64,000 nucleotides of DNA, from assembly GCA_965243025.1 (NCBI GenBank), contig CBDETY010000003.1:4224001-4288000 (forward strand). Direction: 5' to 3'. Both the position numbers and the translations under genes were made by a program. Within the stretch, counting starts at the first letter, position 1. Every line of letters begins with the position of its first letter. The DNA is from Candidatus Latescibacterota bacterium. GTDB lineage: Bacteria; Latescibacterota; UBA2968; UBA8231. This document shows positions 9,103-60,775 of this stretch, one piece after another. Below the pieces are notes generated by a model. The model saw only the letters and a list, made by a program, of their open reading frames with translations. It had not been told where the DNA came from and made no database searches.

Positions 9103-10634
9103 ATGGTAGACCGCATCATTCAGCTGTCGCTGCACAACCGGCTGCTCATGCTGGTCCTGGGAGCGGTGGTGGTGGGGAGCGGATACTACAGCTACCGGCA
9201 GCTTCCGGTCGATGCCTTTCCCGACGTCTCCCCCAACCTCGTGCAGGTATTCACCGTCACCGAGGGTCTGGCCCCCGAAGAGATCGAAACCTACGTCACC
9301 TACCCCATCGAGACGGTGATGAACGGCCTCCCCGGCATCGAGAACATCCGTTCGGTTTCGAACTTCGGCCTCTCTGTCGTCAACATCTACTTCGAAGACG
9401 GAATGGATATCTACTTCGCCCGCCAGCTGGTCAACGAACGGCTTCAGGAGGCCCGGGAACAGATCCCGGAAGGGTTCGGCGAACCGGCGCTGGGGCCGAT
9501 TTCCACCGGTATGGGGCTGGTGCTCTTCTACTACCTCGAAGACACCACCGGCGAGCACTCGCTCGAAGAGCTGCGCACGATCCAGGACTGGCTGGTCAAG
9601 TTCCACCTGCAGACCGTTCCGGGAGTCACCGAGATCCTCGGCATCGGCGGCCACGAGAAGCAGTTTCACGTAGTGGTCGATCCCCACGCCCTTTTGCGCT
9701 ACGGGGTGACCCTGCGCGACGTCATCGAACAGATCGCAGCCAACAACCTCAACGTCGGCGCCCAGTTCATACGGAAGGACGCCGAGGAATACGTCGTGCG
9801 CTCGGTCGGCCTGGCCTCCACCGTGGCCGATATCGAGAACATCGTCATCAAGGCAGCGGACGGAACTCCCATCTTCCTCAACCAGGTAGCGGAAGTGGGC
9901 ATCGGAGGGGCAGTGCGGCGGGGGGTGCAGACCCGCAACGGTGTGGAGGAAGTGGTTGCCGGCATGGTGATAAAGCTCTTCGGCGCCAATTCCTCGACGG
10001 TGATCGAGCGGGTCGAAGCGAAGATGGAGGAGATCAACCGCATTCTTCCCGACGGAGTGCGGCTGGTCCCCTACTACGAGCAGAAGACCCTGGTGGCGGC
10101 CTGCGTGGCCACGGTCACGAACGCCCTGATTCAGGGTATCGTCCTGGTCACCCTGGTGCTGATCCTGTTCATGGGCAGCGCCCGGCCAAGCCTGGTGGTG
10201 GCCCTCTCCATTCCCTTCTCCGTCCTGTTCGCCACCCTCGGCATGCGCTGTTTCGGCATCTCGGCCAATCTCATGTCCCTCGGGGGCCTGGCCATCGCCA
10301 TCGGCATGATGGTCGACGGCACCATCGTCGTCGTCGAGAACGTCGACCGCATCCTGCGGCAGGCGGATGCCGGCGAGGGACGCGTCCAGGCCGTTGCCCG
10401 CGCCTGCGCCGAAGTCGGCCGTCCCATCGTCTTCGCCATCCTCATCATCATTCTCGTCTTCCTGCCCCTGTTCACCCTCCAGGGTGTGGAGGGAAAGACC
10501 TTCCGGCCCCTGGCCTACACCGTGGCCATGGCGATGCTGGGCTCACTGGTCTTCGCCCTGTTACTCGCCCCGGTGCTGGCGAACCTTTTGCTGCGCTCAC
10601 CCGGATCCGGGGGAGACGGGGCGCCGCGACGCGA
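9103..10634 (+). pseudogene. czcA: CusA/CzcA RND transporter, 5' half (interrupted)
   Basis: LPVDAFPDVSP, GMMVDGTIVVVEN, EGKTFRPLA; only ~510 aa before running into the element end. Confidence 0.93.
10627..10634. repeat. 8-bp target-site duplication CGACGCGA (left copy)
   Basis: Identical 8-mer at 59180-59187; both copies abut the inverted repeats. Confidence 0.93.
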
Positions 10635-11244
10635 GGGAATTATCTAGATAACTGCGCAAGGGAATTTTAGTGATCTCACCCGCGAAATTAAAGAAAATCT
10701 GGTATAATATAGTAGAGAAATTGCAGAGAAACGGACATCCTTCGTCCCACTGTAATAGCCGGGAGATGGGGGATGTCGACTGGCTGGCAATTCCACATGA
10801 TTGCATGCTGACCGGAGAAGCCTGCCAGATTGGCACCATGGATCGACCCCCACTCTGATCGAGGAGTGGATGCGCGAGCCCCCTGGGTCTACAAAGCCGT
10901 CGTTGAGGTGAGAAGGATCATTCCGTTTGGTCGACAAGATGGCAAGGGGCAAGCTGGATCTGATTCCGGATCGGGAAGGCCACTCGGATCGAGGAGGGAA
11001 CCGGGACTCTTGCCTGATCTGAGTCGGGGACTGGCAGCGGCATATCATGGCGTTCTCAAAGTCAGGCAGTCTGCATCCTGCGATCTATCCGGACTCGCAG
11101 GTACCTCCCCCTGAAGTCGGCACCGTGGATCGAAAGGCCGCTTTCTGATGGAGGAGAGGATGCGCGAATGCCCCGGGTCTGCAAAGCCGTCGTCGCCGAG
11201 GTGAGGAGGAAGTCATCCCGTTTGGTCGACAAGATGGCAAGCAG
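10635..11244 (+). repeat. Left terminal inverted repeat (610 bp)
   Basis: Reverse complement of 58570-59179; the ORF track gives identical mirror peptides at both ends; begins GGGAATTATCTAGATAACT. Confidence 0.93.
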
Positions 11245-11432
11245 GATGACTGAGGATTCCTCGGGTACAGCCTGAGCTCCAGGCGCAACAGGGGAGGCAG
11301 CCGGCAGGGATGTCGCCTTGCCGACCATTCGGCATGATTCGCCGCTTCCCTCCACCAGATGAGAATCGATTCACAGTTCCGCCGGCGATGCGCAAGACGG
11401 CAGGCACCGGCAGCGGGATGTCGACTTGCTGA

Positions 11433-12437
11433 CTATTCGAACAGCTTCGCCCTTTCCTTCGACCGGTGATGAGTGTAGGGTTTCGGAGGAACCTCCGTCG
11501 CCAGCAGATCCCGGTAGGTCAGCCGTTTCCTCATCATCCGCGCCGTCAGATACCTAATCCGCTCCTCGGGGTCCAGGTTGCGGATGTTGTGCTTGCCTGT
11601 GATCTCCTTGAGGTATCGGGGCAGATACTTGGGAGACACGTGGTGGTGGGTCCCGTATATCGTTCGCTTCGCCTTGGCCCAGAACGATTCCATGCCGTTC
11701 GTATGGACCTCCCCTCTGACGTATTCCTCCTTGTGGTTGACGGTGTCGTGTCTTCCCGGCCATTCGAAACCATCGCGAAAGGTCGGGGCATTGTCGCTGA
11801 AAAGGGTGCCCTCCGGGCGTACGTTTTCCTCGGCGAAGGGGAACACGGTCTCGCGTGTCTCATCAGGGACCACCTTGGAGGCCACGTCGCCGGTTTCCCG
11901 GCAGCGCACTCCGCTCACGGGGGTACTGCCATACCTCCATTTCCAGTGAAACTTCTTGTCGGCGTGCCTGTTTTTATCGTCTCCGGCGAACCAGGCTTGA
12001 TCTATCTCGGCCATGCTGCTGCCCAGCGGTTGGGGAACCGGCCAGGCTTCCCGGAAGCGGTGCAGCATGAACAAGGCCGACGAATACGCAAGGTCGAGGT
12101 CGCTCGCAAGCTGCCTGGCGCTGATTCCCTTCGGTCTGGATTCGTACAGGTGGACGCCGATGGCCCATTTCCGCAAGGGGATCTTGGAGTGGGACATTCC
12201 CCCTTCCGTGCGCACGCTGAAGCGCTTTCGACAGCCGCCGCACCAGTAGGGCATGGGCTTGCGGCCGGGGCATTCCGATACCCTGTCGGAGCGGCCGCAG
12301 CGCGGGCAGTATATGAATTCGGGCAGGCCGTCTACGGTCTTCCCCCATCTTTTCTCTTCGAACCATTTTTCTGCGGTTGCGTCATCTGGAAACATGCTGA
12401 ACAAATCAATTAACGAGATGCTTTTACCATTACTCAT
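11433..12437 (-). CDS. IS1595-family transposase (left arm)
   Basis: Zn ribbon CPRCG...WCGGC, HTH, EIDQ / FSDN / HTNGMESFW, HHVSPKYLPRYL. Confidence 0.92.
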   Translation of the reverse strand: MSNGKSISLIDLFSMFPDDATAEKWFEEKRWGKTVDGLPEFIYCPRCGRSDRVSECPGRKPMPYWCGGCRKRFSVRTEGGMSHSKIPLRKWAIGVHLYESRPKGISARQLASDLDLAYSSALFMLHRFREAWPVPQPLGSSMAEIDQAWFAGDDKNRHADKKFHWKWRYGSTPVSGVRCRETGDVASKVVPDETRETVFPFAEENVRPEGTLFSDNAPTFRDGFEWPGRHDTVNHKEEYVRGEVHTNGMESFWAKAKRTIYGTHHHVSPKYLPRYLKEITGKHNIRNLDPEERIRYLTARMMRKRLTYRDLLATEVPPKPYTHHRSKERAKLFE

Positions 12438-12652
12438 CCTTACTGACCTTCGGGCCGTGGAATACCGAACTGGAGACCTGCGGCCCTTACAAAAACGATG
12501 TGATTCACGCTCCCATGGCTGTCCTTTCGGTTTCAGTGGGATGGTGACTCTGCCGGAATGTCACCGACAGATGGGACTGGGGACCGGCCGTGGATCCTGC
12601 CCGGCTCCCGTTGCATGTGCCTATAGTGTATTCCGCTGGATTAAAAAAGCAA
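12438..12652 (-). promoter_or_regulatory. Transposase promoter (TTGCTT...TACACT) and conserved structured leader
   Basis: Homologous to 44043-44257, 45624-45830 and 57260-57464. Confidence 0.55.
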
Positions 12653-13486
12653 GTCGGCTTTCGGAGAATTCAAAAACCCCGTAATAGCGACGGTAAACTT
12701 TAGTTTCTGGAAGGGGAGGAGGGGGCGGCACGGAAGGGGAGGGCGAGGAGGTCGGCGGGGGGTGCAGGAAGGCCCGATTCAAGGGGGATGGGCATCCAGA
12801 CGATCCCCGGGGGCTGAAGCCGGGGTGTAGCGGTCCCCGGCAACCGGCGAAAACGGAGTCGCGCTACGAGGCGGAGAAGACCGGGGGTCTGCGGATAATC
12901 GAGAGGACGCGGAAGGAGGCGCTTCGGAGGGGCAAAGATTCTGAAGCGGTCAATCGCCGGGTTATCCGAAAGATTTCAGGATCGGCGGGTCGAGGTGCAG
13001 CTGCGGAACTACGAGGCGAGGGTATCCCGCAAGCTGGCGAACCGGCAGGCCGTGAGCTCCCCTGAGGGTCGACGCTGGGAAGAGGGTATTTTCCCGTAGC
13101 GTAGGGAATACAGAAGCCGACGATTCGGGAGGGATCCTCTCGTTGCCTTTGCACACCCCCCTTGGGAAATCGGCACGGTGGATCGGAGCCCCCCGGCTTC
13201 TGAACGAGGAGGGGGTCTCAGTCCGGGATCGGTGTTCCTGGGGGATTCAGGGAACAGGGTGTCGAGGGTGCCGGCTGCCCGGAACTACGAGGCGAGGGGT
13301 ATCCCCTTCCCTGAAAGCCTGGCGAACCGGCAGGCCGTAAGTGCCCCCTGGTACGGTCCTTGCAGGACTACGCTGCGAAAAAGGGGGTATTCTCCTGCGG
13401 AGAATACTGAATGGAGGCAGCGGGCAGCGGGATTGTCAAGAACGGTTTAAAGTTGACAGTTCCAACGGTTTAAAGTGGACACTTTT

Positions 13487-14314
13487 CTACTCCACGCGGC
13501 TGGATTCTGTCCGCGCATGTGTTCTCCTTCCGGTTGACGAGGGGTATCTCCGGTGGTGAGTCCGGACTGGCGACGATGCCGCAGGCGGTAGCTGTCCCCC
13601 CGGATGTTGATGGTGGAGGAGTGGTGTAACAAGCGGTCCAGGAGCGCGGTGGCCAGCACCGGATCGGGAAAGATCTCGTTCCAGGTGCCATAGCTCTTGT
13701 TGCTGGTCAGGATGATGGACTTGAGCGCTTCGTAGCGCTTGCTGACCACTTCGAAGAGGAAGGTGGCGTCCTGGCGCTCCAGGGGCATGTAGCCGACCTC
13801 GTCCAGGACCAGCAGGTCGGGTCGGGTCAGCGTCTGGAGCAGGACGGACAGCCGGTTCTTCTCGCGAGCGCTGCGGGAGCGGGTGACCAGATCGTGCAGG
13901 GTCAGGAAATAGACGCGGTGGCCGCGCTCGATGGCCTTGAGGGCCAGGCCGAGAGCCAGGTGCGATTTGCCGACCCCGGGCGGTCCGAGGAACAGGACGT
14001 TGGTCCCCTGGTGCAGGAAGCGCAGCGTGGCGAGCTCGTCGATGGTCTGTTTGGGCACCTGGGCCTGGGCGTGGAAATCGAAGCTTTCCAAGGTCCTGGT
14101 CGCGGCCATGCCCGACAGTCTCAGGTTGGTGGCCACCCGGCGCTCCGAAGCGGTGGACGCGCTCGCGGTTGAGGAGTTCATCGATCACTTCCACCGGCAA
14201 CTGCTGCTTTTTTTGGCCCTCCTCCAGGACCGTATCCAAGTCGGTGCGGGCGGCGTTCAGGTCGAGTATTTCCAGGCGTTCCTGCACGCGCTCGTAACTG
14301 ACGGTCGCGCTCAT
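13487..14314 (-). CDS. istB: IS21 helper ATPase IstB (apparently frameshifted near 14150)
   Basis: N-terminus MSATVSYERVQERLEILDL in one frame; GPPGVGKS, LLVLDEVG and LLDRLLHH in the 13447-14181 frame. Confidence 0.8.
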   Translation of the reverse strand: MSATVSYERVQERLEILDLNAARTDLDTVLEEGQKKQQLPVEVIDELLNRERVHRFGAPGGHQPETVGHGRDQDLGKLRFPRPGPGAQTDHRRARHAALPAPGDQRPVPRTARGRQIAPGSRPGPQGHRARPPRLFPDPARSGHPLPQRSREEPAVRPAPDADPTRPAGPGRGRLHAPGAPGRHLPLRSGQQALRSAQVHHPDQQQELWHLERDLSRSGAGHRAPGPLVTPLLHHQHPGGQLPPAASSPVRTHHRRYPSSTGRRTHARTESSRVE

Positions 14315-14750
14315 GCGAGCACCTCCTGCGACGTTTCGATGAGGAGGTCCTCATACACCTCCAGCGACCGGACCTGGACCTCGAGATCCGGATGGGCCGC
14401 CCTCGGCGGCGGTGCCGTGAGCGCCAGGACCGGCTCGGGCGGCCTCTGCTCGAAGCGGAGGCGCCGTCCTTTCCGTCGGCTGTGCTGCCGGGCCGCTGCT
14501 CGCGTGAGCTGGCGGAGGGCGGCGGCGTGCTCGGGCAGGGTGACGGCGGCATGCCCCTGGACTCGCCGCTGATGACGAGCCACCGGGACGTCGCCCAGAT
14601 ACACCCAAAACAGTTCGCCGACCTCCTCGCCTTCGGGTCGCACTCTCACCGTGCGCCCCACCGCTTGCGGATCGACGCTGTAGCGGGTGCCCCCGTAACT
14701 GATATGACCGTCGGAGGGCACCTGTCGGAATTCGAATCGGCGCGGAAACC
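14311..14750 (-). pseudogene. istA: IstA transposase C-terminal fragment
   Basis: RQVPSDGHISYGGTRYSVDP...VQVRSLEVYE; DDE core absent. Confidence 0.8.
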
Positions 14751-15521
14751 GGGCGGAGAGGGGCTGAGGAGCACGGTGTGGATAACTTGCTGGAAGACGC
14801 TCACACCGGGTTATCCACATCTGAGTCCGGTACCTCCGAGAGGACGAGCGATTATCTCAGGAGATACGCACCCCGAAGTGTCCAACTTAATATCGGTGAT
14901 TTTGTCAAAGAAAAAACCGGCGGTGACAGGATGTCCACCCCTCCACAGAGGAGGTGGAGGCGGAGAGCGAGCCTGACCTCGTCACGCCACCGGATCCCGC
15001 CGGTACGTCAGGGGTCCCCCCCCCATTCGTGGCAGGGGAGAAGGCTATCCCCCGGAAAGGTCTGTTCCCGGCAATCGGCGAAAACGGAGTCGCGCTACGA
15101 TCCCGAGGCGGAAAAATCGCGGTCTGCGGATAGTCGAGAGGATTTCAGGAACGGCTGCGTCGAAGTGCCGGTGTCGATGAAACTGGCTGCGGGCTGAAGA
15201 AACGGGCAGCGGAACTGCGAGGGGAGTGCCGAGAACCCACAAGCCGGCCGCATTTCTGCAAGGATCCACTTGATGGTAGCGGTGTTTCACCCCACCCCGA
15301 CATCCAGTCAGGGGTGCGCGAATCTGGGTGTCCCGCCAAGTGGGGAACCTGGGGTGTCGTTTGACATGGGTGAGGTGCGGACGGGTGAGAGCAAGCCAAG
15401 CGGAGGCGGAGGAGCCGCCGAGGAAACCGCTTCCTATGCAGAAGTGGAACCTTCCATCCATAGGCGGAGGCCGGACGAGGTTTGAGCGTATTCATCGACG
15501 GCCGGTACCATGGGACGAGGG

Positions 15522-15743
15522 TCATGGCCCTGTAATCTGTATCTCCTCTCTGGCAGCCATTTTGAATTCCTCAAGGGATGCTGCCAGCCTGTTCAGACAG
15601 CCCAGTACCACCCGGTGGGCCTTATGGGTCTTGGGATACGGGGCAATTCCGTTCACTTCGGTTTTCAGGATGTTGAGTTTCTCTAGGTGAAGCCCGGATT
15701 CAATCACCACGGCCATCAGGTCGTGATGTTCACGTCGGTTCAT
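15522..15743 (-). CDS. Small hypothetical protein
   Basis: MNRREHHDLMAVVIESG..., with a GGAG RBS upstream. Confidence 0.45.
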   Translation of the reverse strand: MNRREHHDLMAVVIESGLHLEKLNILKTEVNGIAPYPKTHKAHRVVLGCLNRLAASLEEFKMAAREEIQITGP

Positions 15744-16159
15744 TGGTCTTTCTCCACACAACAGGGTCTTTAATGGTCGGTGAACGTCAGAAAATTCTCA
15801 TCCAGATCGTGGAGCAGTTCGCGCAGGCTCTCGCGAACCGTGTTCTCCTCCTGCCGAAACAAGGTTCCAGACCTGGTTGTAGTCCCTGCCGGAACCCTCG
15901 TCTCCGGTGACGCTTTCCGTTACGGATAGTTGAGGTCCCACCTGGTGGGGCCGGGGTTAATTATAGGGACCCCTTCCTCCATCCCTGTCTGGAACCGGGG
16001 TTCCGGTGCGGTGTTTTCGGTACCAACGAAAACGCCTGCAAATCAGGACCGCAGGACGGCACCTTCGAATTGCAGGCGTTTCCCAAACACCTTGCCGCTT
16101 TCCCCTTCAGGGGTTTCCGGCCACCCCTTCTGTTTCTTTTTCTGAATCCAACCAGGATG

Positions 16160-16337
16160 AGATCACCCGCGACTTCACCACCGGCAGGCCGACGTCGATG
16201 CACTCCCGGACCACCTCGGCGTAGGACAACCGGCCTCTTCGGCCAGCTCCTCAACGGCTTTGTTGTACGGAAGTGCTCACCGACGCCCTCAAATGGCCGG
16301 GGAAGTGGATCCTTCGCCTGTATGGTCTCCTGGGCAT
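16160..16337 (-). pseudogene. Third RHH-like paralog, frameshifted
   Basis: MPRRPYRRRIHFPGHL... then LSYAEVVRECIDVGLPVVK beyond a premature stop and two compensating shifts. Confidence 0.6.
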
Positions 16338-16355
16338 GCCAGAGGGGAATTTCAG

Positions 16356-16592
16356 CTAGGAAATGGAAGGCGAGCCGGGCCACCTTCCGGGATGGTGTGG
16401 GTGGTAGTTTCTTTTCACCCGCAACTTCACCACCGGCAGGCCGATCTCGATGCACTTCCGGACTGTTTCGGCCAACGACCAACCGGCCTGGTCGGCGATC
16501 TTCTCGACGGTTTCTCTCGTGGCCCCGTTCATGGATACACTCAGGTGCCCGGGGTAGTGGCTCCTTCGCCGGTAGGGTCTGGTTTGGGTCAT
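16356..16592 (-). CDS. Ribbon-helix-helix-like DNA-binding protein
   Basis: HYPGHLSVSMNGATRETVEKIADQAGWSLAETVRKCIEIGL. Confidence 0.65.
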   Translation of the reverse strand: MTQTRPYRRRSHYPGHLSVSMNGATRETVEKIADQAGWSLAETVRKCIEIGLPVVKLRVKRNYHPHHPGRWPGSPSIS

Positions 16593-16798
16593 GCCGAAGA
16601 GGGGATGTCGTTGCTCCTGCCCGCACTGGCCCGCACCTTCGGCAGGCCGGCCTCGATGCACTCCCGGACCGTTTCGGCGACCGACCACCCGGCCTGGTCG
16701 GCGACCTCCTCGACGGCTTCTTGTGTGGCCTGGGTCACGGCTACACTCAAATGCTCGGGATAGTGGCTCGGCCGCCTGTATTTTCTCTTCTTGGCCAT
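16589..16798 (-). CDS. Ribbon-helix-helix-like DNA-binding protein
   Basis: HYPEHLSVAVTQATQEAVEEVADQAGWSVAETVRECIEAGL; ATGA coupling to the next gene. Confidence 0.65.
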   Translation of the reverse strand: MAKKRKYRRPSHYPEHLSVAVTQATQEAVEEVADQAGWSVAETVRECIEAGLPKVRASAGRSNDIPSSA

Positions 16799-16955
16799 GT
16801 TCGTCTTATTTCACAGGGGAAAAAGAAAAAAGGAAGATGGGATGCCGATGTTCATTCCCCCTTTGACCTGGCGATGGAGGCCACCCCAAGAACCAGGTTT
16901 CAGGGGTTTTGCCGATCATCCCCAATCACATCCCATCTCCCCGAAATCTGAAATA

Positions 16956-17011
16956 GAAAGAGGGGTGGGAGGGAGACGACGAAATTGCCTCCTTTCCCAA
17001 CCCCCCTCTTT
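16956..17011 (-). terminator. Stem-loop after the giant FN3 gene
   Basis: AAAGAGGGGG-TTGGGA...TCCCACCCCTCTTT followed by a T-rich tail on the minus strand. Confidence 0.5.
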
Positions 17012-17023
17012 ACCAACCTGCTT

Positions 17024-27918: not shown

Positions 27919-27922
27919 CCCG

Positions 27923-43672: not shown

Positions 43673-43699
43673 CGTTGACGGGTTAAGCCTAACGCGAAG

Positions 43700-44355: not shown

Positions 44356-44699
44356 TGGAAAGAAAATGCAGAGAACCGGACTTCCCCTGTCCCACTGCTT
44401 TAGCCCTGAGACACGGAAGAATGCCAGATTGACCCCGTGGGATCGAAAAGGCCGGGCTCTGATGGAGAGAAACCGGGACTCCTGCCCTGATCTGATGTCG
44501 GCGACTGGCAACGGTTTCTGCATCGGGCATTTCCCCATCTCGGTTGACGGCTCACCTCGCTGACTGGATACGAGAATCCCCCCGGCACGTTTCACGTCAG
44601 ATCTCCCTGGAGGCCGGCACTGTGGATCGGAGAGCCTCCGCCTGCATCGAGCAACGGGAAGGTCCTTCAGGGACCAGGAGAGCATCCCTGCATCCGGGA

Positions 44700-46449: not shown

Positions 46450-46598
46450 TTATCGGAGCCCTCCGCCCAGGCCCCGGGCAAACAGGCACATCTGCTCGAC
46501 GGTGTCGCAGTCCCGGATGTTGTGCCGTCCTTGGAACTCGTTCACGTATCGCTGCAGGTGCTTGAAACTCATGCGATGGAAGGTGCCGTGATAGCCCC
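46450..46598 (-). pseudogene. IS1595 transposase C-terminal remnant
   Basis: GYHGTFHRMSFKHLQRYVNEFQGRHNIRDCDTVEQM. Confidence 0.75.
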
Positions 46599-46742
46599 GT
46601 TATTATAGCATTGCCCAGAAAATCCGCAAAAAAAGATAAAGGTCCTGGACAAACGGACAGAGGTTGTCCTCTTGGCGGTTATCTTGTGGTATGGAAGTAC
46701 AGCCATCCGCATGGGCAGTGATGCCCAGAGGCGTGGAGGGGG

Positions 46743-49385: not shown

Positions 49386-49541
49386 AAAAGGGGAAAGCTG
49401 TTCCGCCATCAAAGAAGAAAGGCTCTCTTCTGCCAACAAGGTGGGAAATCACATGAGGAAAGGAGTCGAGCGTCAGGAAGGCAATCCTTTGCAGTGTTCT
49501 TTGCCTACCGTTCGAGGCGGCAGGAGAGGATTGGAGCGAGC

Positions 49542-49750
49542 CAGGACCGCGTCCGGTTTTCCTGGGCTGTCATTTTCTTGAAAAATCGATTAGGCACCGT
49601 TGCGAAATAGAGGCTGTACTTTCTGAGGGAGGGTGTTATCCTTGAAGCGCGGACGTCGAGACTACCCTGCGGGCCACATGCGGCGAAGCCTTGGTGCCCG
49701 TGTTGAACGAGCGGACCCAGCGCCTGTGGGCCGCCGCCGAGGCGCACGGT
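49542..49750 (+). mobile_element. ISAzo13-like left-end fragment
   Basis: Frame from 49688 reads ALVPVLNERTQRLWAAAEA (ISAzo13-type transposase N-terminus); candidate end CAGGACCGCGTCCGG. Confidence 0.5.
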
Positions 49751-51342: not shown

Positions 51343-51722
51343 TCCCCATTAAGGACGGGGAATTATGTACTTGACCGCACAAGCCTGGGGCCGGCACGGC
51401 TTGCAATGCCTCGCCAAAAACCGGGAAAGACTCGGAAACATCGGTCCCCGGCCTACTCAGGGTAGGAAAAACGGAGGTAAAGCTATGGGCTTGGCATTGG
51501 ACTACTACAGCAAGAGGAAATCTGGACCGCATACTGCAGGAGGTCCACCCGGCAGGTCGCCCAAGGTGTCCGCCTGCGTTTCACTGATCCAAACGTTCGT
51601 GCTGGTCGGTGTGTCGGTTCTCTCACAGGGTTGCTTGCCCGTCTTCCAGCAATACCAAGGCGCTAGGACGCAGGAGCCGGGTACGCTTGAATTCACGCCG
51701 AACGTCGCGACCGTGTCCTTCA

Positions 51723-52383
51723 AGCGCCGCTCGCATTGTCTTAGCACCGACCCGGAATTCGCCGCCAAAGCGGCCGACATCGTCGGCCTGTATCTCGACC
51801 CGCCGGACAACGCGGTGGTGGTGTGTGTCGACGAGAAACCGTCCACCCAGGCGCTGGAGCGCGCCCAGGGCTATTTGCGTCTGGCCCCGGGGTGCGGCGC
51901 TGAGCGGCTTCAGCCATCGCTACCAACGCCACGGCACCACGACCCTGTTTGCCGCCCTCGAGGTGGCCACCGGCCACATCAAGGCCGGGCATGCCAAGAG
52001 ACGCCGGCGCCGGGAGTTCCTCGAATTCATGAACGACGTGGTGGCCGCCTATCCGGCCGACCAGGCCCTCCATGTGATCCTGGACAACCTCAACACCCAC
52101 AAGCCCAAGCGCGACCGCTGGTTGGCGCGCCATCCCAACGTCCACTTCCACTTTACGCCCACCAATGCGTGCTGGCTCAACCTGATCGAAATCTGGTTCA
52201 GCATCCTCAGCCGTCGTGCCTTGCACGGAGCCAGCTTTACTTCGCCCCGACAGCTGGGCAACGCCATCGACGCCTTCATCGCCGCTTACAATTCCAAGGC
52301 ACACCCCTTCGAGTGGAAAAAAGAGAAGGTCTATCAGGGCCGGCTCCATGATACATGCGCGGAATTGTGCAATTAATCACTAG
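51723..52383 (+). mobile_element. IS630-family 3' fragment, frameshifted
   Basis: STDPEF..VCVDEKP, RHGTTTLFAAL, ILDNLNTHK, WLNLIEIWF; ends CACTAG. Confidence 0.85.
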
Positions 52384-52418
52384 AAGAACGGAAGAAAAGA
52401 AAGAATCCAAATATCTCC

Positions 52419-55400
52419 ATGAAAAAGCTTATTCTTCACACCGCTTTCTTGGTCCTCCCTCTCTCACCACCAACCGCCGTCGATGCTTCGCTCACGGGGG
52501 CCGACAGCTTGCACTTCTGCGCGCCGTTCGATTACGAGCAGTGGCGGCGCGATCACCCCCGCCCCGGGGGAAAGCGGCTGGCGGATCTGAACGTCGGTGA
52601 ACCGCGCACCGTGCGGATGATCTACTTTCTGCCCAACGACCGTCCGTTTCGCCAGGAAGTGGTCGATTCGATAAAGGTCACGATTCGAGAGGTGCAGAAC
52701 TTCTTTGTCGACCAGATGGAGGTGCACGGTTACGGCAAGCGAACGTTTCGCATCGAAACCGACGCCCAGGGAGAACCGCTAGTTCATCGCGTCGACGGGC
52801 GTGAACCCGACAGCAGCTACCTTGACGACACCTTGGGTAATGTGCTCGACGAGATAGAACAGGTATTTGATCTGAAAGCGAACATTTACCTCGTTGTCAT
52901 TGACAACAGTGCCAATCGGATTGTAGACAAAGCAACAGAAATAACCGGTGTAGGTGTAGCAACCCGAATCCAAAAAACCGGCGGATTCGCATTGATAACC
53001 GCCGGGTTCAGCTTTTTCACGGCAGCCCATGAACTGGGACATACTTTCGGATTGGAGCACGATTTCCAAAATCGAAAGTTCATCATGTCGTACGGTGATC
53101 CGAACCAACCTATACTATCGCCGTGTCATGCAGAGTTTCTAACGGTTCATCCCTACTTCAATCTTTCTGTTTTTATTGAAGCGGGGGAGTCGCCAGTTAT
53201 CGAACTCCTTTCGTCCCCCGAATATCCGGCAGGATCAAAGAGTGTCGCCGTCCGACTCAAACTCCAGGACGCGGAGGGACTGCATCAGGTCTTTCTCCTG
53301 GCGGAAGCACGTGGCCCGGGCTACGAAGTGTTGGCGTGCCGCAACCTGGCGGGTAAACGAGATGGCGAAGTGGTATTCGAATACGACGGGTACAGCCCCT
53401 CGCACGCTGATTGGGGAAAGGTCACAAGCCTGTCCGATAAGAAGGTGCATCCAATGCGTGTCGAGGCCGTTGATTTGTCCGGGAATGTTGGGGAAACGTT
53501 GTTTCAGCTATCGGCGGAGGCTTCCCCTGATGAACCACGTGCGTCCACGATTGAGATTATCGCTGGAGACCACCAGCAGGGCGCACCGGGACGCACACTG
53601 GAGAACGCCCTCGTCGTCGAGGTGAAGGATCAGAACGGGGATCTGTTATCGGACGAGACAATCCAGTTTGGAGTCACCGAGGGCGGGGCGAGGCTCAGCG
53701 GGCGGTACCTGGTCGAGAATGCGACGACCGATGCGAACGGACGGGCCGAGCTGACCCTCACCCTCGGCTCCAATCCGGAAACCATCGTCGTCCGTGTGTC
53801 TGCGCCTGAAGTCCCGGAGTGCCAGCCCGTTTTCTTCAGAGCGACGGCCGTCGGCGTGCACGTGGCCTCTTTGCCGGGTGATGCCGAGACGTGGCACCTT
53901 CCAGATCACGCCATCGCGCGCCTAGGTAGAGGTCACATTGGCGAGGGCGACCGAGCGGTATCGTTTTCGCCCAACGGTCAACACGTCGCCGTGGCCAGTG
54001 GCATCGGCGTGTGGCTGTACGATCTGGCGGCGTCTCGTGCCATCGCGCTGTTTCCCACTAGAAGCCCGGTCCATTCTGTAGCGTTTTCCCCAGAGGGAAA
54101 CCGGCTCGCCTCGAGCAGGGAAGGGGGGATCGACCTGTGGGATGTGGCGACCGGGACAAGGAGCGCGGAACTCATCGGGCACAATACCCTCGGCTTCTAT
54201 GTAGATGTCACCGCCGTGGCGTTCTCGCCGGACGGGACACGGCTCGCATCCGGGTCAATAGACCAGGTCGTCAAGTTGTGGGACGTGGCAACCGGAGGCG
54301 ACATCTACACTTGGGAGTTCGAACCAAGCGTCTCGGATTTCATCACGGTGGCGTTTTCGCCAGATGACGCCATGCTCGCCGTGGGACTTCAGGATGGGTC
54401 GGTGCGGCTGTTGGATGTCGCAACTCACGAAGTCAGCGCCACGCTTTTCGGGCATCGACTGGGTGTCCGTTCCGTAGCGTTTTCAAGGGATGGGAGGACG
54501 CTCGCGACCAGCTCGGACGATGGCGTGGTCAGACTATGGGACATGGCGCGGCGGGAGACCGTAATGGACCTTACGGGGCACGGGGGTCCGGTCACTTCGG
54601 TTTCGTTTTCGAGGGATGGCAATACCCTCGCATCCGCATCAAACGATAGCGATGTCAAGCTGTGGGATGTCGGGACGGGCACATCCGTCGCCACGCTTGC
54701 CGGAGGGCATACGTCCTGGGCTACATCGGTGTCGTTTTCTCCGGAGGGGACAACCGTTGCGTCCGGATCGACGGAGGATGGTTCTATCCTATTGTGGGAT
54801 GTAGCCACGAGAAACGCCGCTGCCATCCCCGGGCTTCACGTGGATGTCGGCAGTTCCGTGTCGTTCTCTCCGGATGGCAAGATACTGGCTTCCAGTTCGG
54901 AGGATGGCACCCCCAAGATTTGGGATGCCGAGACAGGACGGCTTATAAGGAGTTTCGGGCTTCGTCCCTGGGGAATACAAGCCGTGGCGTTCTCGCCCGA
55001 CAGCACCACGCTCGCCGCAGGATCGTTAGATAACACAATCGACCTATGGAATGTCGTGACGGGCGCCAGGATCGCTTCCTTCAAGAGAGGCCAGGGTCAG
55101 ATCCTGTCCCTGGCGTTCTCGCCGGACGGGAAAAGGCTCGCCGCAGGAGATCCTCAAGGGATCGCCCTTTGGGACGTTGCAACTGTTTCCGCTGCAAGCG
55201 CAACCCTTCGTGATGTAGTCTTTGGTGACATGGCAACGGACCATTATATCAGCACACCGTTGGGGTATGCGTGGGTGTGGTCTTTAGCGTTTTCAGTGGA
55301 TGGGAAGACGCTCGCGTCCTGCTCAAGCGATGGCACGGTCACGCTGTGGGACGCGTCAACGCTGACCCATCTCGCCACACTCGGGGGAGACCGTAGCTTC

Positions 55401-56831
55401 GGGGGAGACCGTATATCGTTTTCGCCCGACGGTACAACGCTTGCTGCCACGACGTGGGACGGGGTCGAGCTGTTGGAAGTGGCAACACGCGAACGAACCG
55501 CCATCTTGCCGGTGGGTTCTGTCACTTCGGTGAAGTTCTCACCCGATAGGACCACACTGGCCTCAGGCCTCGGGGATGGCACGGTCACCCTGTGGGACAT
55601 CGCGACCCTGGGCAAGATTGCTACCCTGGAGGGTCATGCGGGGGCAGTTCGATCCCTGTCGTTTTCTCGCGACGGGAAAATCCTCGCCTCAGGTTCGGGT
55701 TTTAATTTTGGAGATGGCACGGTTTTGTTGTGGGATCTGCAGCTTCTGGAACCTCGGCCCCATACCCTGATCAAGGTCGCCGGCGACGAACAGGAAGGAC
55801 CGGCAGGTGGGGACCTGGCCGAACCGTTTGTGGTTTCGGTGCTCGATCAAAACGGCGACCCTCTTGCCGGTACGACGGTCACCTTCGCGGTCACGGCCGG
55901 TGAGGGAACCCTCTCGGCAACCGCCGACACCACCGATGAAAACGGCTTGGCTGCCGCCACTCTGACCCTGGGTAGCGGTCCCGGGGGAAACACCGTGGAT
56001 GTAACGGTGGCCGGGCTGAATCGGACGACCTTTACCGCTCTCGGGATTGCCATTCCCCGGACCCTGAGCAGGATTTCCGGCGACCAGCAGCAGGGAGCTC
56101 CCGGCACTACGCTGCCGGGCCCGTTCGTGGTTTCGGTGCTGGATCAAAACGGGACGGCACTTGCCGGGGTCGCCGTCACCTTCGCGGTCACAGCCGGGGA
56201 CGGGACCCTTTCCACAACTACCGCTACCACCGATGCCAACGGTAGCGCCTCAAGCATCCTGACCCTGGGCAACCTGCCGGGGGCAAGCACTGTCACCGTA
56301 TCGGTAGCCGGCCTCGAGCCGGTGACCTTCACTGCCACCGCCGAGGCCAGCCCCGACTTCGACGGAGACGGCGAAACCGGTTTCTCCGACTTCTTCCTGT
56401 TCGCCGACGCCTTCGGCAGCAGCGACCCCCGCTTCGACCTGGACGGCAGCGGCACCGTCGATTTCGGCGACTTCTTCCTTCTGGCCGACCATTTCGCGAA
56501 TCCGGCCCGGGGCAAGCTGCTGGCCCTAGCCCGGGAAATTATCGGCCTGCCCGAGGGATCCAAGCTGCAGCAGAACGTCCCCAACCCCTTCAACAGCCAG
56601 ACCGTCATCTCCTGGTTTCAGATTAAGCCCGGGCAGTCGCGCGTGGAGGTGTTCGCCCTGACCGGGCAGCGGGTGGCGGTGCTGTACCAGGGGCCGACGA
56701 AGGCGGGAGTCCATCAGGTGCACTGGAACGGCCGCGATGACAAGGGCCGTACCTTGGCCAGCGGCGTCTATCTGTACCGGCTGTCGACGAACGAGAGCCT
56801 ACAGACGCGCAAACTCACCTTGCTCCAGTGA
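52419..56831 (+). CDS. Secreted WD40-repeat protein with HExxH metallopeptidase-like, Ig-like and FlgD domains
   Basis: AHELGHTFGLEH, more than 12 FSPDG..LAS..LWD repeats, Big_1-like repeats, PNPFNSQT tail. Confidence 0.88.
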   Translation: MKKLILHTAFLVLPLSPPTAVDASLTGADSLHFCAPFDYEQWRRDHPRPGGKRLADLNVGEPRTVRMIYFLPNDRPFRQEVVDSIKVTIREVQNFFVDQMEVHGYGKRTFRIETDAQGEPLVHRVDGREPDSSYLDDTLGNVLDEIEQVFDLKANIYLVVIDNSANRIVDKATEITGVGVATRIQKTGGFALITAGFSFFTAAHELGHTFGLEHDFQNRKFIMSYGDPNQPILSPCHAEFLTVHPYFNLSVFIEAGESPVIELLSSPEYPAGSKSVAVRLKLQDAEGLHQVFLLAEARGPGYEVLACRNLAGKRDGEVVFEYDGYSPSHADWGKVTSLSDKKVHPMRVEAVDLSGNVGETLFQLSAEASPDEPRASTIEIIAGDHQQGAPGRTLENALVVEVKDQNGDLLSDETIQFGVTEGGARLSGRYLVENATTDANGRAELTLTLGSNPETIVVRVSAPEVPECQPVFFRATAVGVHVASLPGDAETWHLPDHAIARLGRGHIGEGDRAVSFSPNGQHVAVASGIGVWLYDLAASRAIALFPTRSPVHSVAFSPEGNRLASSREGGIDLWDVATGTRSAELIGHNTLGFYVDVTAVAFSPDGTRLASGSIDQVVKLWDVATGGDIYTWEFEPSVSDFITVAFSPDDAMLAVGLQDGSVRLLDVATHEVSATLFGHRLGVRSVAFSRDGRTLATSSDDGVVRLWDMARRETVMDLTGHGGPVTSVSFSRDGNTLASASNDSDVKLWDVGTGTSVATLAGGHTSWATSVSFSPEGTTVASGSTEDGSILLWDVATRNAAAIPGLHVDVGSSVSFSPDGKILASSSEDGTPKIWDAETGRLIRSFGLRPWGIQAVAFSPDSTTLAAGSLDNTIDLWNVVTGARIASFKRGQGQILSLAFSPDGKRLAAGDPQGIALWDVATVSAASATLRDVVFGDMATDHYISTPLGYAWVWSLAFSVDGKTLASCSSDGTVTLWDASTLTHLATLGGDRSFGGDRISFSPDGTTLAATTWDGVELLEVATRERTAILPVGSVTSVKFSPDRTTLASGLGDGTVTLWDIATLGKIATLEGHAGAVRSLSFSRDGKILASGSGFNFGDGTVLLWDLQLLEPRPHTLIKVAGDEQEGPAGGDLAEPFVVSVLDQNGDPLAGTTVTFAVTAGEGTLSATADTTDENGLAAATLTLGSGPGGNTVDVTVAGLNRTTFTALGIAIPRTLSRISGDQQQGAPGTTLPGPFVVSVLDQNGTALAGVAVTFAVTAGDGTLSTTTATTDANGSASSILTLGNLPGASTVTVSVAGLEPVTFTATAEASPDFDGDGETGFSDFFLFADAFGSSDPRFDLDGSGTVDFGDFFLLADHFANPARGKLLALAREIIGLPEGSKLQQNVPNPFNSQTVISWFQIKPGQSRVEVFALTGQRVAVLYQGPTKAGVHQVHWNGRDDKGRTLASGVYLYRLSTNESLQTRKLTLLQ

Positions 56832-57464
56832 CCCTTGCCTACGTCCTGAACTGAAATATCCTCCCCTTCCCCAAGGGGGTGTGCAAGGCACCGAGAGGAT
56901 CCCTCGTAGCGTAATCCGGCAAAGACCACGCCAGGGCCCACTCACGGCCTGCCGATTTCGCCAGCTTTCGGGATACCCTCCCCTCGTAGTACCGTAGCGC
57001 CACCTCGACCGTTCCCGAATCGCCCGTATCCCCGACGTAGCCGGGGCCTCCGAAGCGCCTCCTTCCCGATATCCGAATCCCGCTTCTTCTCCCCCTCGGT
57101 CTCGTAGCACCGACTCCGTTCCCCCGATTGCCGGGGACCGCTGCTCACCGGCTCCCCTTCCTGCACCCCCCTTCCCCCTCTCCACCCCCTCCCCCGCTCC
57201 CAGAAAACCAAAGTTTCCCGCCGCCCTTACGGGTGTTTTCGAACGCACTTGGAAGCCCGCTTTACTTTTTTATTTTCCCGATACATTAATCAATAGAGCG
57301 GGGACGCCGGCAGCATCCGCTGCCACCTCCCCCAGTTCCCTTCTGTCGGTGAGTACCGACAGATCACATCCCACCGAAAGGAATCCCATGGGAGCGTGAA
57401 TCACACTATTTGTTGAGGGCCGCTGGTCTCAAGTACGGTATTCCGCGGTCCGAAGGTAATCGGA

Positions 57465-58481
57465 GTGAAAAATGGTAAAAGCATCTCGTTAATCGATTTA
57501 TTCAGGATGTTTCCAGATGATGCAGCAGCAGAAAAATGGTTCGAAGAAGAAAGATGGGGGAAGATGGTAGACGGCCGGCCCGAATCCATATACTGCCCGC
57601 ACTGCGGATGCTGCGACAGGATAACCCCGTGTCGCAACCGCGCCCACATGCCCTTCTGGTGCGGCGACTGTCGAAACCACTTCAGCGTCCGCACCGGAAC
57701 GGTGATGTCCCACTCCAAGGTCCCCTTGCAGAAATGGGCCATCGGCGTCCACCTGTACGAATCCAGACCGAAGGGAATCAGCGCCAGGCAGCTTGCGAGC
57801 GACCTCGACCTGGCGTATTCGTCGGCCTTGTTCATGCTGCACCGCCTCCGGGAAGCCTGGCCGGTTCCCGAACCGCTGCGCAGCGGGATGGCCGAGATAG
57901 ACCAAGCCTATTTCGCCGGAGACGATAAGAACAGGCACGGCAACAGGAAGTTTCGCCGGAAATGGAGGTATGGCACTACCACCGTGAACGGAGTGCGCTG
58001 CCGCGAAACCGGCGACGTGGGCACCAAGGTGGTCCCTGACGTGACCCGCGAGACCGTGTTCGCCTGCGCAGAGGAACACGTAGGCCAGGGGGGCGCCCTT
58101 TTCAGCGACAATGCCCCGACCTTTCGCGATGGTTTCGGATGGCCGGGAAGACACGAAACCGTCAACCACAAGGATGAATACGTCAGAGGGGAGGTCCATA
58201 CGAACGGCATTGAATCGTTCTGGGCCAAGGCGAAGCGAACGATATACGGGACCCACCACCACGTGTCTCCCAAGTATCTGCCCCGATACCTCAAGGAGAT
58301 CACAGGCAAGCACAACATCCGCAACCTGGACCCCGAGGAGCGGATAAGGTATCTGACGGCGCGGATGATGAGGAAACGGCTGACCTACCGGGATCTGCTG
58401 GCGACGGAGGTTCCTCCGAAACCCTACACTCATCACCGGTCGAAGGAAAGGGCGAAGCTGTTCGGATGGCCAGGAAGATGA
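57465..58481 (+). CDS. IS1595-family transposase (right arm)
   Basis: EIDQ / FSDN / HTNGIESFW; C-terminal third near-identical to 11433-12437. Confidence 0.92.
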   Translation: MKNGKSISLIDLFRMFPDDAAAEKWFEEERWGKMVDGRPESIYCPHCGCCDRITPCRNRAHMPFWCGDCRNHFSVRTGTVMSHSKVPLQKWAIGVHLYESRPKGISARQLASDLDLAYSSALFMLHRLREAWPVPEPLRSGMAEIDQAYFAGDDKNRHGNRKFRRKWRYGTTTVNGVRCRETGDVGTKVVPDVTRETVFACAEEHVGQGGALFSDNAPTFRDGFGWPGRHETVNHKDEYVRGEVHTNGIESFWAKAKRTIYGTHHHVSPKYLPRYLKEITGKHNIRNLDPEERIRYLTARMMRKRLTYRDLLATEVPPKPYTHHRSKERAKLFGWPGR

Positions 58482-58569
58482 AAACCGCTGCCCGTTGCCT
58501 CCGGTCCGAACTGAGTCTGTGGATGGTAAGCGGGAACTCTTCTCGTATGGTCAGCAAGGCGACATCCCG

Positions 58570-59179
58570 CTGCTTGCCATCTTGTCGACCAAACGGGATG
58601 ACTTCCTCCTCACCTCGGCGACGACGGCTTTGCAGACCCGGGGCATTCGCGCATCCTCTCCTCCATCAGAAAGCGGCCTTTCGATCCACGGTGCCGACTT
58701 CAGGGGGAGGTACCTGCGAGTCCGGATAGATCGCAGGATGCAGACTGCCTGACTTTGAGAACGCCATGATATGCCGCTGCCAGTCCCCGACTCAGATCAG
58801 GCAAGAGTCCCGGTTCCCTCCTCGATCCGAGTGGCCTTCCCGATCCGGAATCAGATCCAGCTTGCCCCTTGCCATCTTGTCGACCAAACGGAATGATCCT
58901 TCTCACCTCAACGACGGCTTTGTAGACCCAGGGGGCTCGCGCATCCACTCCTCGATCAGAGTGGGGGTCGATCCATGGTGCCAATCTGGCAGGCTTCTCC
59001 GGTCAGCATGCAATCATGTGGAATTGCCAGCCAGTCGACATCCCCCATCTCCCGGCTATTACAGTGGGACGAAGGATGTCCGTTTCTCTGCAATTTCTCT
59101 ACTATATTATACCAGATTTTCTTTAATTTCGCGGGTGAGATCACTAAAATTCCCTTGCGCAGTTATCTAGATAATTCCC
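58570..59179 (-). repeat. Right terminal inverted repeat (610 bp)
   Basis: Ends AGTTATCTAGATAATTCCC; followed by the TSD at 59180-59187. Confidence 0.93.
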
Positions 59180-60775
59180 CGACGCGAAGGCTGGCTGATG
59201 CGACGCCTGGTGCCGGCGTACCGGCCCATGGTCGCCGGTTTCGTCGCCCACCGCTTCCGGGCCCTGGGTTCGGCCGGCATCCTTCTGCTCATCGGGCTGG
59301 CGGTCTTCCCGCGCCTCGGGTCGGAGTTCACCCCGGCCCTGCAGGAGGGGACCATGGTCCTGAGACTGACCATGGCTCCGTCGATCTCCCTCGAGGAGAG
59401 CACCCGCATCACCATGCTGGTGGAGCGCCGTCTGCTGAAAATCCCGGAAATCGCCGGGGCTGTCTCGCGAATCGGCCGCGGCGAGGTCGGCGCCCATACC
59501 GATCCGATCAACAGCGCCGAGATGTTCCTCCTGCTCGAGCCGAAGGACCAGTGGCGCCAGGCCGACGACCAGGAAGAGCTTCAGGAGACCATTCGCGCCG
59601 AGCTGGGGGAGATACCCGGTGTGCTGACCAACTTCACGCAGCCGATCGCCATGACGGTGGACGAGCTGCTCGAAGGGGTGCGGGCGGAGCTGGCCATCAA
59701 GCTCTTCGGGGACGACCTCGACCTGCTGAAACAGAAGGCGGACGAAATCGCCCGGGTGGTCGACACGGTTTCCGGGGCCGCCGACGTCCAGGTGGACCAG
59801 GTAGGCGGGGCCCCCCAGCTGCTGATCAGGGTCGACCGCCGGGCCATCGCCCGTTACGGCGTCAACGTAGCCGATGTTCAGGAAGTGGTTGAGGCGGCCG
59901 TCGGCGGTGAGATGGTCGGGCAGGTGTTCGAGGGGATTCGCCGCTTCGACATCCTGGTGCGTTTCGCCCCCCGATTCCGCAGCAGTCCGGAGGCCATCGC
60001 CCGGATCCTGGTCCAGTCCCCCATGGGCGTCCAGATTCCCCTGGTTCAGCTGGCCCGGATCGAAGAGGTGGTCGGACCGCGCCAGATCACCCGGGAAAAG
60101 AGCCAGCGCTTCATCACCGTCCAGTGCAACGTCACCGACCGGGATATCGGCTCCTTCGTCGAGGAGGCCCGGGAGGCGATAGATGGCCGGGTGGCGCTGC
60201 CGCCGGGCTACCTCGTGACGTGGGGGGGCCAGTTCCGACTGCAGCAGGAAGCCAACAAGCGGCTGGCGATAGTCGTGCCGATCACCCTCTTCGCCATCTT
60301 CCTGCTCCTGTTCTCCAGCTTCAACTCGCTGAAAAACGCGATTCTCGTCCTGCTCAACATTCCCCTCGCCCTCGTCGGCGGGGTGGTCGCCCTGTGGATT
60401 ACCGGACAGAACCTGTCCGTGCCCGCCTCGGTCGGCTTCATCGCCCTGTTCGGGATCGCCCTGGGAAACAGCATGGTGATGGTGACCTGCTTCAACCAGC
60501 TCGTCCGCGAGGGAGTCGACCTGGACGAAGCCTCGGTTCAGGGCGCATGCCTGCGGGTGCGGCCGGTGCTGATGACCGCCCTGACGACCGCCCTGGGGCT
60601 GCTTCCGCTGCTGTTTTCAAGCGGGACGGGCAGCGAAGTACAACGGCCGCTTGCCACGGTAGTCGTCGGCGGCCTCGTCAGCTCGACCGTGCTGACCCTG
60701 CTGGTTCTGCCGGCGCTCTACAAGTGGTTCGCCGTGCAGTTCAACCACGGAGAAGAGGAAAGTTCATTTGGCTGA
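59180..60775 (+). pseudogene. czcA: CusA/CzcA RND transporter, 3' half
   Basis: LGSEFTPALQEG, RVRPVLMTAL, GSEVQRPLATVVVGG; joins the 5' half as ..GAPRREGWLMRRLV.. Confidence 0.93.

Follow-up and report, generated by a model that had tools for sequence, protein, structure and literature searches.

The 64,000-nt window analysed here (G000:C3:4224001-4288000, part of the 6.78-Mb contig C3 of a Candidatus Latescibacterota bacterium) contains a 48.5-kb element, termed E3, within a czcA-like gene for a metal-efflux pump. With a probability of roughly 0.8, we assign E3 to a lineage-specific family of DDE transposons of very large size that descend from an ISNwi1-like insertion sequence (IS) of the IS1595 family. 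By every test run its transposases and ends are of the IS1595 family, and the element itself is neither an IS nor a classical composite transposon. An earlier note on this stretch had proposed a large two-armed cargo transposon that moved as a unit. The borders of E3 and the two halves of the interrupted gene, which encodes a resistance-nodulation-division (RND) protein, are as follows (ORF, open reading frame).

9103..10634, plus strand: RND (czcA-like) gene, N-terminal half (ORF 9103-10644; ACR_tran profile positions 1-492)
10627..10634: target-site duplication, left copy, CGACGCGA (8 bp)
10635..59179: element E3, 48,545 bp from tip to tip
59180..59187: target-site duplication, right copy, CGACGCGA (8 bp)
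59188..60775, plus strand: RND (czcA-like) gene, C-terminal half (ORF 59198-60772; ACR_tran profile positions 511-1020)

The 8-mer cgacgcga is present at both 10627-10634 and 59180-59187, which is the exact 8-bp duplication described in the earlier note. The ends of E3 are mirror images, as was also claimed: a repeat search gave a terminal inverted repeat of 610 nt with 100% complementarity (10635-11244 and 58570-59179) and a second inverted pair of 1041 nt with 91% complementarity (11396-12436 and 57466-58506). Deletion of 10635-59187 restores the czcA-like reading frame, since the 1532 nt of 9103-10634 leave 2 nt, which together with the 10 nt of 59188-59197 form whole codons. In agreement with this arithmetic, the orthologues in G001 and G002 (same genus as G000) and in G004 (another genus of the same family) are uninterrupted and in frame at the E3 site (...GAPAGEGWMM...; 3 of 3). 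Downstream of czcA, a CACGAC-type hexamer/30-mer repeat (61451-61547) lies within an ArsP-like permease/SPFH gene and would encode a His/Asp-rich stretch.

Each arm of E3 contains one IS1595-family transposase gene transcribed towards its own end (DDE_Tnp_IS1595 at 11433-12437, minus, and 57465-58481, plus), as the earlier note had described. The arms are built as follows.

10635..11244, plus strand: left 610-bp stretch, inverse-identical to 58570-59179
58570..59179, minus strand: right 610-bp stretch, inverse-identical to 10635-11244
10635..12758, plus strand: left arm, consisting of the tip, a non-coding subterminal region of about 800 bp, the transposase gene and an upstream region of about 320 bp
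57170..59179, minus strand: right arm, mirror image of the left arm
11433..12437, minus strand: left-arm IS1595-family transposase, 334 aa, reading towards the left tip (PF12762, 3.9e-30; NF033547, 136 bits)
57465..58481, plus strand: right-arm IS1595-family transposase, 338 aa, 84% amino acid identity to the left copy, reading towards the right tip

The subterminal region of the left arm holds two repeat units of about 290 bp, and the arm ends in a purine-rich tract without an inverted end. A scan of the left arm for promoters and terminators gave one promoter-like site, compared with 0.8 expected. No Rfam family reached its gathering score in the window; the subterminal repeats are therefore not a known RNA.

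To find related elements, contig C3 was searched with a 26-nt tip matrix built from 12 tips (threshold 22 bits), which gave 16 tip sites, compared with none in 2 Mb of shuffled sequence. All 16 tips start with GGGAWWTAT or GAGAATTAT. The left arm, used as a query against the genome itself, matched many copies, and the full ones start with GGGAATTAT or GGGATATAT. Identical flanking 8-mers pair 10 of the 16 tips into five elements, E1-E5, so that the genome-wide search suggested in the earlier note yielded four large duplication-flanked elements (34.4-186 kb) in addition to E3. A search for the tip pattern in the congeners gave 9 sites in G001 and 11 in G002, versus none for the reversed control. 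The elements delimited in this way, other than E3, are listed below.

C3 1304677-1339122: E1, 34,446 bp, duplication GAACGAGG
C3 1941107-1986021: E2, 44,915 bp, duplication CTCGTAGC
C3 6017644-6058067: E4, 40,424 bp, duplication ACCAGAAC
C3 852184-1038176: E5, 185,993 bp, duplication CCAACATC
G001: element of 25,871 bp, duplication AACGCCAC
G001: element of 4,574 bp, duplication ATCGAGGC
G002: element of 24,863 bp, duplication GGTCGATC

Together, E1-E5 make up about 354 kb or 5.2% of the 6.8-Mb genome. The sites of E1, E2, E4 and E5 are empty in G001 and G002, where the flanks abut with an overlap of exactly 8 bp in eight of eight comparisons. A two-armed architecture with a common core occurs four times in this genome and also in a congener; every copy is flanked by a separate 8-bp duplication, and relatives are empty at the corresponding site. 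The cuts are presumably made by an IS1595-type transposase of the element. In G002, two tips (C1 958103 and 3233153; loci L162 and L170) have the 8-mer ATGCAATC in common but are separated by 2.28 Mb and point in opposite, outward directions, the pattern that would be expected from a large inversion through an element. The family was not found in G004, in which only two core genes (RadC and a 72-aa ORF, see below) were detected, without tips and without a close transposase.

The stretch 7000-19000, which covers the left junction, was compared with four sequencing runs. X17, X18 and X20 are three samples of one study, and X1, labelled as a sponge metagenome, belongs to a different study. Identical 582-nt contigs in X17, X18 and X20 match 10083-10664 with 0 mismatches and extend 30 letters into the left tip; they end inside the tip because a word-graph contig must stop at a repeat. 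An X1 contig of 1,891 nt matches 9974-10634 with 8 mismatches and continues with AGGCTGGCTGATGCGACGCCTGGTGCCGGC, the 30 letters of window 59188-59217. This contig joins 10634 to 59188 and therefore represents a close strain with an unoccupied gene and a single CGACGCGA. Intact czcA alleles, which the earlier note had recommended to look for, are thus found in three relatives and in X1. Stretches without long X1 contigs were not counted as evidence of absence.

Word depth in the arms was 3-7x that of the flank in X17, X18 and X20, i.e. the arms are multi-copy, and such repeats are an error-prone place in assemblies. That the repeats were misjoined and the insertion in czcA does not exist is nevertheless highly improbable, given the identical mismatch-free contigs in three runs, flanks that match exactly with an 8-bp duplication, five elements of the same geometry with clean empty sites in relatives, and a contig of 6.78 Mb.

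We then asked where the arms end on their inner side. In an alignment of 12 arms, conservation reaches about 2.1 kb from the tip (window about 12720-12758) and is followed by the purine-rich tract and a patchwork of short repeated modules. With a 40-nt tip matrix, the 6 kb next to each of the 12 tips contained no inverse-oriented tip-like sequence above shuffle level: the highest inner score was 20.2, whereas shuffled sequences had maxima averaging 18.3 and reaching 21.8, and true tips scored 24.9-33.9. Compared with the canonical relatives described below, each arm of about 2.1 kb is an IS1595-type unit that retains only the end downstream of its transposase gene. Neither a unit of about 2 kb with two ends nor a solo arm was present among the 16 tips of this genome.

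These results bear on the possibility that E3 is an ordinary composite, in which two complete and independently mobile ISs bracket 44 kb of chromosome. Inverted IS-derived arms with one transposase gene each, as in Tn5 or Tn10, would fit such a composite. The missing inner ends within 6 kb in all 12 arms and the lack of solo arms among the 16 tips do not; in addition, the bracketed DNA is absent from the orthologous site in three relatives, i.e. it is not chromosomal backbone, and the same core recurs in other elements. We regard an ordinary composite as very improbable, and the statement of the earlier note that E3 is not made of two intact ISs was borne out.

Several features of the tips were recorded alongside. 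A box at tip positions 44-75 (..CCGCGAATTTAAAGAAAATCTGGTATAAT..; window 10678-10712) is nearly invariant across full-tip types that differ in the terminal 26 nt, and contains an inward-pointing TGnTATAAT-like motif. The short tips (window 51358; C3 1038176 and 3298967) are without this box. In the 4.6-kb element of G001 only one arm is present, and the opposite side consists of an 86-bp inverted repeat; therefore about 26-86 nt of tip suffice for one end. Short repeated modules at 12851-13433, 14929-15155, 41328-42085 and 56908-57170 are located just inside the arms and between cargo blocks, and they also occur in E2 and E4. One of these modules is interrupted as follows, and contigs in three runs join 13429 to 14929, i.e. 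without the insertion.

13434..14938, minus strand: IS21 remnant inserted in a repeated sub-arm module (IstB 13447-14181; C-terminal part of IstA 14311-14820)

Between the arms, E3 contains a core that also occurs in E1, E2, E4 and the 25.9-kb element of G001. Its reading frames are supported by the substitution pattern per codon position.

33692..40400: core common to E1-E4 and the 25.9-kb G001 element, about 7 kb
33827..34216, minus strand: ORF of 129 aa without family match, with a third-codon-position substitution pattern
34544..35671, minus strand: internal IS1595 transposase, a paralogue with about 50% amino acid identity to the arm copies (330 aa from the likely start near 35536)
36056..36637, minus strand: RadC-like JAB protein
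36794..37771, plus strand: SWIB and DnaJ-domain protein (domains at about 37187-37660)
37861..38133, minus strand: ORF of 90 aa, 97-98% amino acid identity between elements
38130..38348, minus strand: ORF of 72 aa, also beside RadC in G004
39695..40144, minus strand: Xre/MqsA-like helix-turn-helix (HTH) protein (weak matches)

The SWIB-DnaJ protein is absent as such from E1. For the 90-aa protein, 13 homologues were found in a collection of 5.8 billion proteins, none of them named. The RadC gene and the 72-aa ORF occur together in G004 (C1, about 3133400-3134500; L142/L143) and at two other sites, without tips or internal transposase; the presence of this pair in another genus without tips means that it is older than the element family. 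At 39496-40144, a 76-aa ORF, whose substitutions are of the coding type, comes after the MqsA/HipB-like HTH gene, and the two may form a toxin-antitoxin pair that stabilises the element.

RadC, SWIB-DnaJ and HTH genes are of a kind often found on integrative elements, and E3 could accordingly be viewed as a genomic island that owes its movement to another recombinase, an integrase or a conjugation system, the IS arms at the borders being mere passengers. This view is extremely improbable, because the ORFs scanned in E1-E4 included no gene for a tyrosine or serine recombinase, a relaxase or conjugation, the tips are the precise points of insertion, with 8-bp duplications that vary in site and without a tRNA or att-like target, and the 4.6-kb element of G001 moves with tips and one arm only.

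Arm and internal transposases were compared next. Both exceed the cut-offs of the family profiles, with 136 bits (arm) and 159 bits (internal) for NF033547 (cut-off 75) and 105 and 116 bits, respectively, for PF12762 (cut-off 27). The DDE residues (EID..,.SD/TD.., HTNG.ES/AFW) are kept in all arm and internal copies, as seen in an alignment of 11 element proteins and 6 outside relatives. The N-terminal CxxC...CxxC zinc ribbon typical of the IS1595 family is present together with these catalytic residues; the profile PF12760 matched only in E4L and in a nested copy within E3 (see below). The arm proteins carry an extra conserved C-terminal tail. A tree of 34 proteins (8 arm, 5 internal, 21 outside) showed that arm and internal proteins are each monophyletic and form sister groups (100/100), with longer branches for the arm proteins. 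The outside set was obtained from 26 of 79 loci, hand-picked across taxa, of which 5 were dropped due to in-frame stops. Outside this family of elements, the closest relatives of the arm transposase do not exceed 44% identity and come from metagenome-assembled genomes (MAGs) of many phyla. No convincing inverted repeat was found around the internal transposase gene.

The two genes differ in their substitution patterns. For the internal transposase, the ratio of nonsynonymous to synonymous substitution rates (dN/dS) was 0.07-0.11 among E1-E3 and 0.35 versus E4, and E3 and E1 differ at 10, 4 and 47 sites in codon positions 1, 2 and 3, respectively. For the arm transposase, dN/dS was 0.53-0.83, and the corresponding differences were 23, 31 and 30 between the left and right arms of E3 (E3L and E3R) and 86, 83 and 103 between E3L and E4L. 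Intact arm genes of 331-362 aa were nevertheless found by ORF scans in seven of the eight paired arms, and in E4R an arm transposase can be read from an uninterrupted frame of 351 codons. If the observed arm substitutions were placed randomly, the chance of obtaining no stop codon would be 0.001, 0.03 and 0.07 for three pairs. The internal paralogue is thus under strong purifying selection, whereas the arm copies evolve almost neutrally and yet stay open. We read these patterns as suggesting that the internal paralogue serves something every element needs, and that the arm gene is under weak or diversifying selection yet must stay translatable. A codon-aligned antisense frame of about 315 codons is open in all arm transposase genes of E1-E4; it was rejected as a gene and is best read as a by-product of a sense gene without TTA, CTA and TCA codons. 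Pfam scans of long antisense arm ORFs and of ORFs in the subterminal repeats gave no match.

A 9-mer scan together with the matrix revealed two extra tips inside E3, at 44279 and 51358, both on the plus strand and oriented to pair with the right tip. They are accompanied by the following features.

43899..44278, plus strand: remnant of an older right arm (inner part), in which the transposase gene breaks off after about codon 7
44279..46050, plus strand: nested left-type arm with its tip at 44279 and a dead transposase gene (44700-45623, minus strand)
51358..51383, plus strand: short solo tip of 26 nt, 22 of 26 positions identical to the right tip of the 4.6-kb G001 element

The transposase gene of the nested arm is without the stretch bearing the second catalytic D. 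The sequence preceding the tip at 44279, ...ATGAGTAATGGTAAAAGCATC, equals the first codons of the remnant right-arm transposase gene, and this tip marks the insertion of one element into the arm of another. On paper, the inner tips define potential nested sub-units of 14.9 kb (44279-59179) and 7,822 bp (51358-59179). The ORF 51365-52351, just after the short tip, has a weak match to IS630-family transposases (7e-6, below cut-off) and resembles the DDE_3 gene region of E1.

The view that E3 lacks inner ends has to be modified accordingly. It stands for the left arm, which has no inner partner tip, and does not stand for the right arm with its two possible partners. Likewise, the claim that no GGGAATTAT-like end lies upstream of the arm transposases holds within 6 kb of the 12 tips and fails deeper inside, at 44279 and 51358. 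Present-day E3 is therefore a nest, and the element grew by nesting. Of the earlier idea of a large cargo transposon that moved as a unit, the recurring two-armed architecture with its own duplications is retained; movement of the 48.5 kb in one piece is plausible for such a nest and does not follow from it.

Two histories fit E3 equally well: either a fused nest transposed via its outermost tips, or an element of about 35 kb entered czcA and was enlarged afterwards. In the latter case, a two-armed element with its original right arm from about 43.9 kb would have inserted, a second element would have landed in codon 7 of its right-arm transposase gene, the tandem right arms would then have collapsed by recombination, and the 48.5 kb would never have moved as one. 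We rate this growth in place at somewhat less than even odds. The right-arm remnant at 43899-44278 immediately precedes the left-type tip at 44279, and the right arm is a mosaic, with an outer 610 bp that is 100% identical to the left arm and a transposase part that is only 91% identical; a crossover between incoming and resident arm would give such a mosaic. The 186-kb element with three cores demonstrates that growth inside a duplication-flanked frame occurs. On the other hand, transposition of a fused nest into czcA by its outermost tips fits the data equally well, and the nested left arm and the transposase part of the right arm are only 82-85% alike, which does not mark them as the two arms of one incoming element. 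Furthermore, the common backbone of E3 and E4 indicates that copying does extend to units of tens of kb: at different sites, the two elements are collinear over more than 20 kb with 84-98% identity, through the fibronectin-III region and the core. The arms of E3 and E4 are only about 74% alike, and backbones and arms have therefore been reshuffled by recombination. E5 contains one full arm, one short tip, three complete cores, one partial core and decayed arms, and for this element growth in place is the likelier history.

Some observations weigh against E3 being a member of a family of very large IS1595-derived transposons. Four of the 16 tips remain unpaired (C3 421246, 3013101, 3298967 and 3354081). 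The contigs of X17, X18 and X20 fall 1 letter short of the 31-letter bridging rule, in a comparison covering only the left junction, and the reads contained neither an excision product nor a new insertion, i.e. no transposition event was directly observed. The even spread over codon positions and the dN/dS of 0.53-0.83 would also fit decaying arm genes, and the arm protein may not be the active enzyme. Finally, an 8-bp duplication proves only one insertion between the outer tips, and later growth in place would look identical. Among the unpaired tips, the 32-nt solo tip at 3298967 and the full arm of the same tip type at 3354081 are 55 kb apart and point towards one another; they are flanked by different 8-mers (AATCGCGG versus CGGCGAAC) and may belong to a rearranged element.

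For the family of IS1595-derived giant transposons, we propose the following scheme. The cis-acting parts would be the tips, i.e. 26 nt starting with GGGAWWTAT, followed in full arms by the conserved subterminal box and the repeats of about 290 bp. Any inverted pair of tips could define a mobile unit, the insertion of which would duplicate 8 bp of target. An arm without proximal end could not move alone, and everything between two tips would travel together. Elements would grow when one inserts into another or when two of them recombine. They carry the common core (paralogous IS1595 transposase, RadC, SWIB-DnaJ, HTH and small orphan proteins) and, as variable cargo, defence systems and eukaryote-like repeat proteins. 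A bolder version of this scheme, which we consider unlikely at present, is that these elements are not decayed composites but distinct accretive giant transposons with a two-part system. A fast arm transposase would recognise and co-vary with the variable 26-nt terminus, and the core paralogue (dN/dS about 0.1) would supply a function on which each element depends, e.g. catalysis or synapsis over tens of kb via the subterminal box; nests would fuse and move from their outermost tips.

The cargo differs between the elements. In E3 it comprises the following genes.

17024..26233, minus strand: protein of 3069 aa with 17 fibronectin-III stretches and a type IX secretion system (T9SS) sorting tail, common to E4
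26710..33129, plus strand: type I-G (I-U) CRISPR effector with cas7g, cas5-6g, cas3g and a weak cas8g match
46743..49385, plus strand: CARDB/dockerin/FlgD-Ig protein
49633..51342, plus strand: leucine-rich-repeat protein
52419..56831, plus strand: WD40/Big_1 protein of 1470 aa

The Cas block has a GC content of 0.69-0.75, versus about 0.60 around it; it is located between the fibronectin-III region and the core and is absent from the otherwise collinear E4. The cas3g of E3 carries a C-terminal HD domain. No cas1, cas2, cas4 or CRISPR array was found in the window. The segment 33016-33186, just after the Cas block, was rejected as an array: it consists of a 74-nt tandem unit (x2.2) that is 80% alike throughout, so it is not of the repeat-plus-spacer type. 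The cargo of E1 comprises three WD40 proteins and an ORC/kinase protein in addition to a methylase and a type I restriction-modification system; that of E2 includes dndA-E, GmrSD, PLD-helicase, NYN and ankyrin proteins; and in E4 the fibronectin-III giant is accompanied by two T9SS proteins and a C25 peptidase.

The IS1595 family has a published size of up to roughly 8 kb with passenger genes, and to our knowledge its members are small ISs that do not exceed a few kb even when they carry passengers. Canonical relatives in multi-copy MAGs measure 1.5-2.8 kb, have GGGGATTATATAC-type ends on both sides, starting with GGGGATTAT, with the proximal end about 80-120 bp upstream of the gene, and make an 8-bp duplication. 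Examples are L059/L060 (2.8 kb), L088/L091 (1.5 kb) and L139:3305-6599 (3.3 kb), and a 3.3-kb relative with both ends is present in G010, a member of the same bacterial family. Like such ISNwi1-like ISs, the elements described here have a DDE transposase with an N-terminal zinc ribbon (PF12762, NF033547), GGGRWTTAT ends and an 8-bp duplication, the last found for five pairs in G000, two in G001 and one in G002. The terminal inverted repeat corresponds at both ends to the ggnnatTAT consensus of the ISNwi1 group. Unlike canonical ISs, which have both ends and one transposase gene in 1.5-3.3 kb, they are without the proximal end, range from 4.6 to 186 kb rather than the about 0.7 to 8 kb of a compact IS, and most contain two arm copies plus a paralogue, i.e. 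three transposase genes per element, and a conserved core.

In Tn5 and Tn10, inverted IS arms, each with a transposase gene, mobilise the interior, and one arm may decay; IS50 and IS10 keep both ends and also move alone. The elements studied here resemble them in their inverted IS-derived arms with transposase genes and differ in having no inner end within 6 kb, no solo arm and an interior core with its own transposase paralogue. Two complete ISs, as in a composite, were not found, while paired outer ends with a single duplication were. Merlin transposase is related to that of IS1595, and Merlin makes duplications of 8-9 bp; it is eukaryotic, single-gene and small. A paper on eukaryotic Merlin transposons mentions the 'IS1595 family' (PMC8101967). 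Tn7560, the pseudo-compound transposon of ISApl4 (IS1595 family), measures 5,765 bp and is bounded by two complete 712-bp ISs in direct orientation, each with 14-bp inverted repeats; it is thought to move by a translocatable unit, and shares with our elements an IS1595-family IS that mobilises cargo and 8-bp direct repeats for the IS (PMC12561309). Full-text literature searches, which did not cover subscription journals, returned no description of large two-armed IS1595 elements, and Tn7560 was the only IS1595-family transposon found.

In this family, the chemistry of small ISs delimits units as large as 25-186 kb. The cargo, with its restriction-modification, Dnd, GmrSD and CRISPR effector systems as well as WD40, ankyrin, leucine-rich-repeat and fibronectin-III proteins, is of a kind described in the literature as typical of sponge symbionts, and the family offers a concrete mechanism for the spread and reshuffling of such genes within the genome of a sponge-metagenome bacterium. 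Within the elements, an arm transposase that evolves nearly neutrally yet always stays open contrasts with an internal paralogue under strong constraint. The elements also mark sites of large rearrangement, as in the G002 pair 2.28 Mb apart. If the two-part system were true, this family would drive inversions on the megabase scale and would be the main vehicle by which these sponge-metagenome bacteria shuffle eukaryote-like proteins and defence islands.

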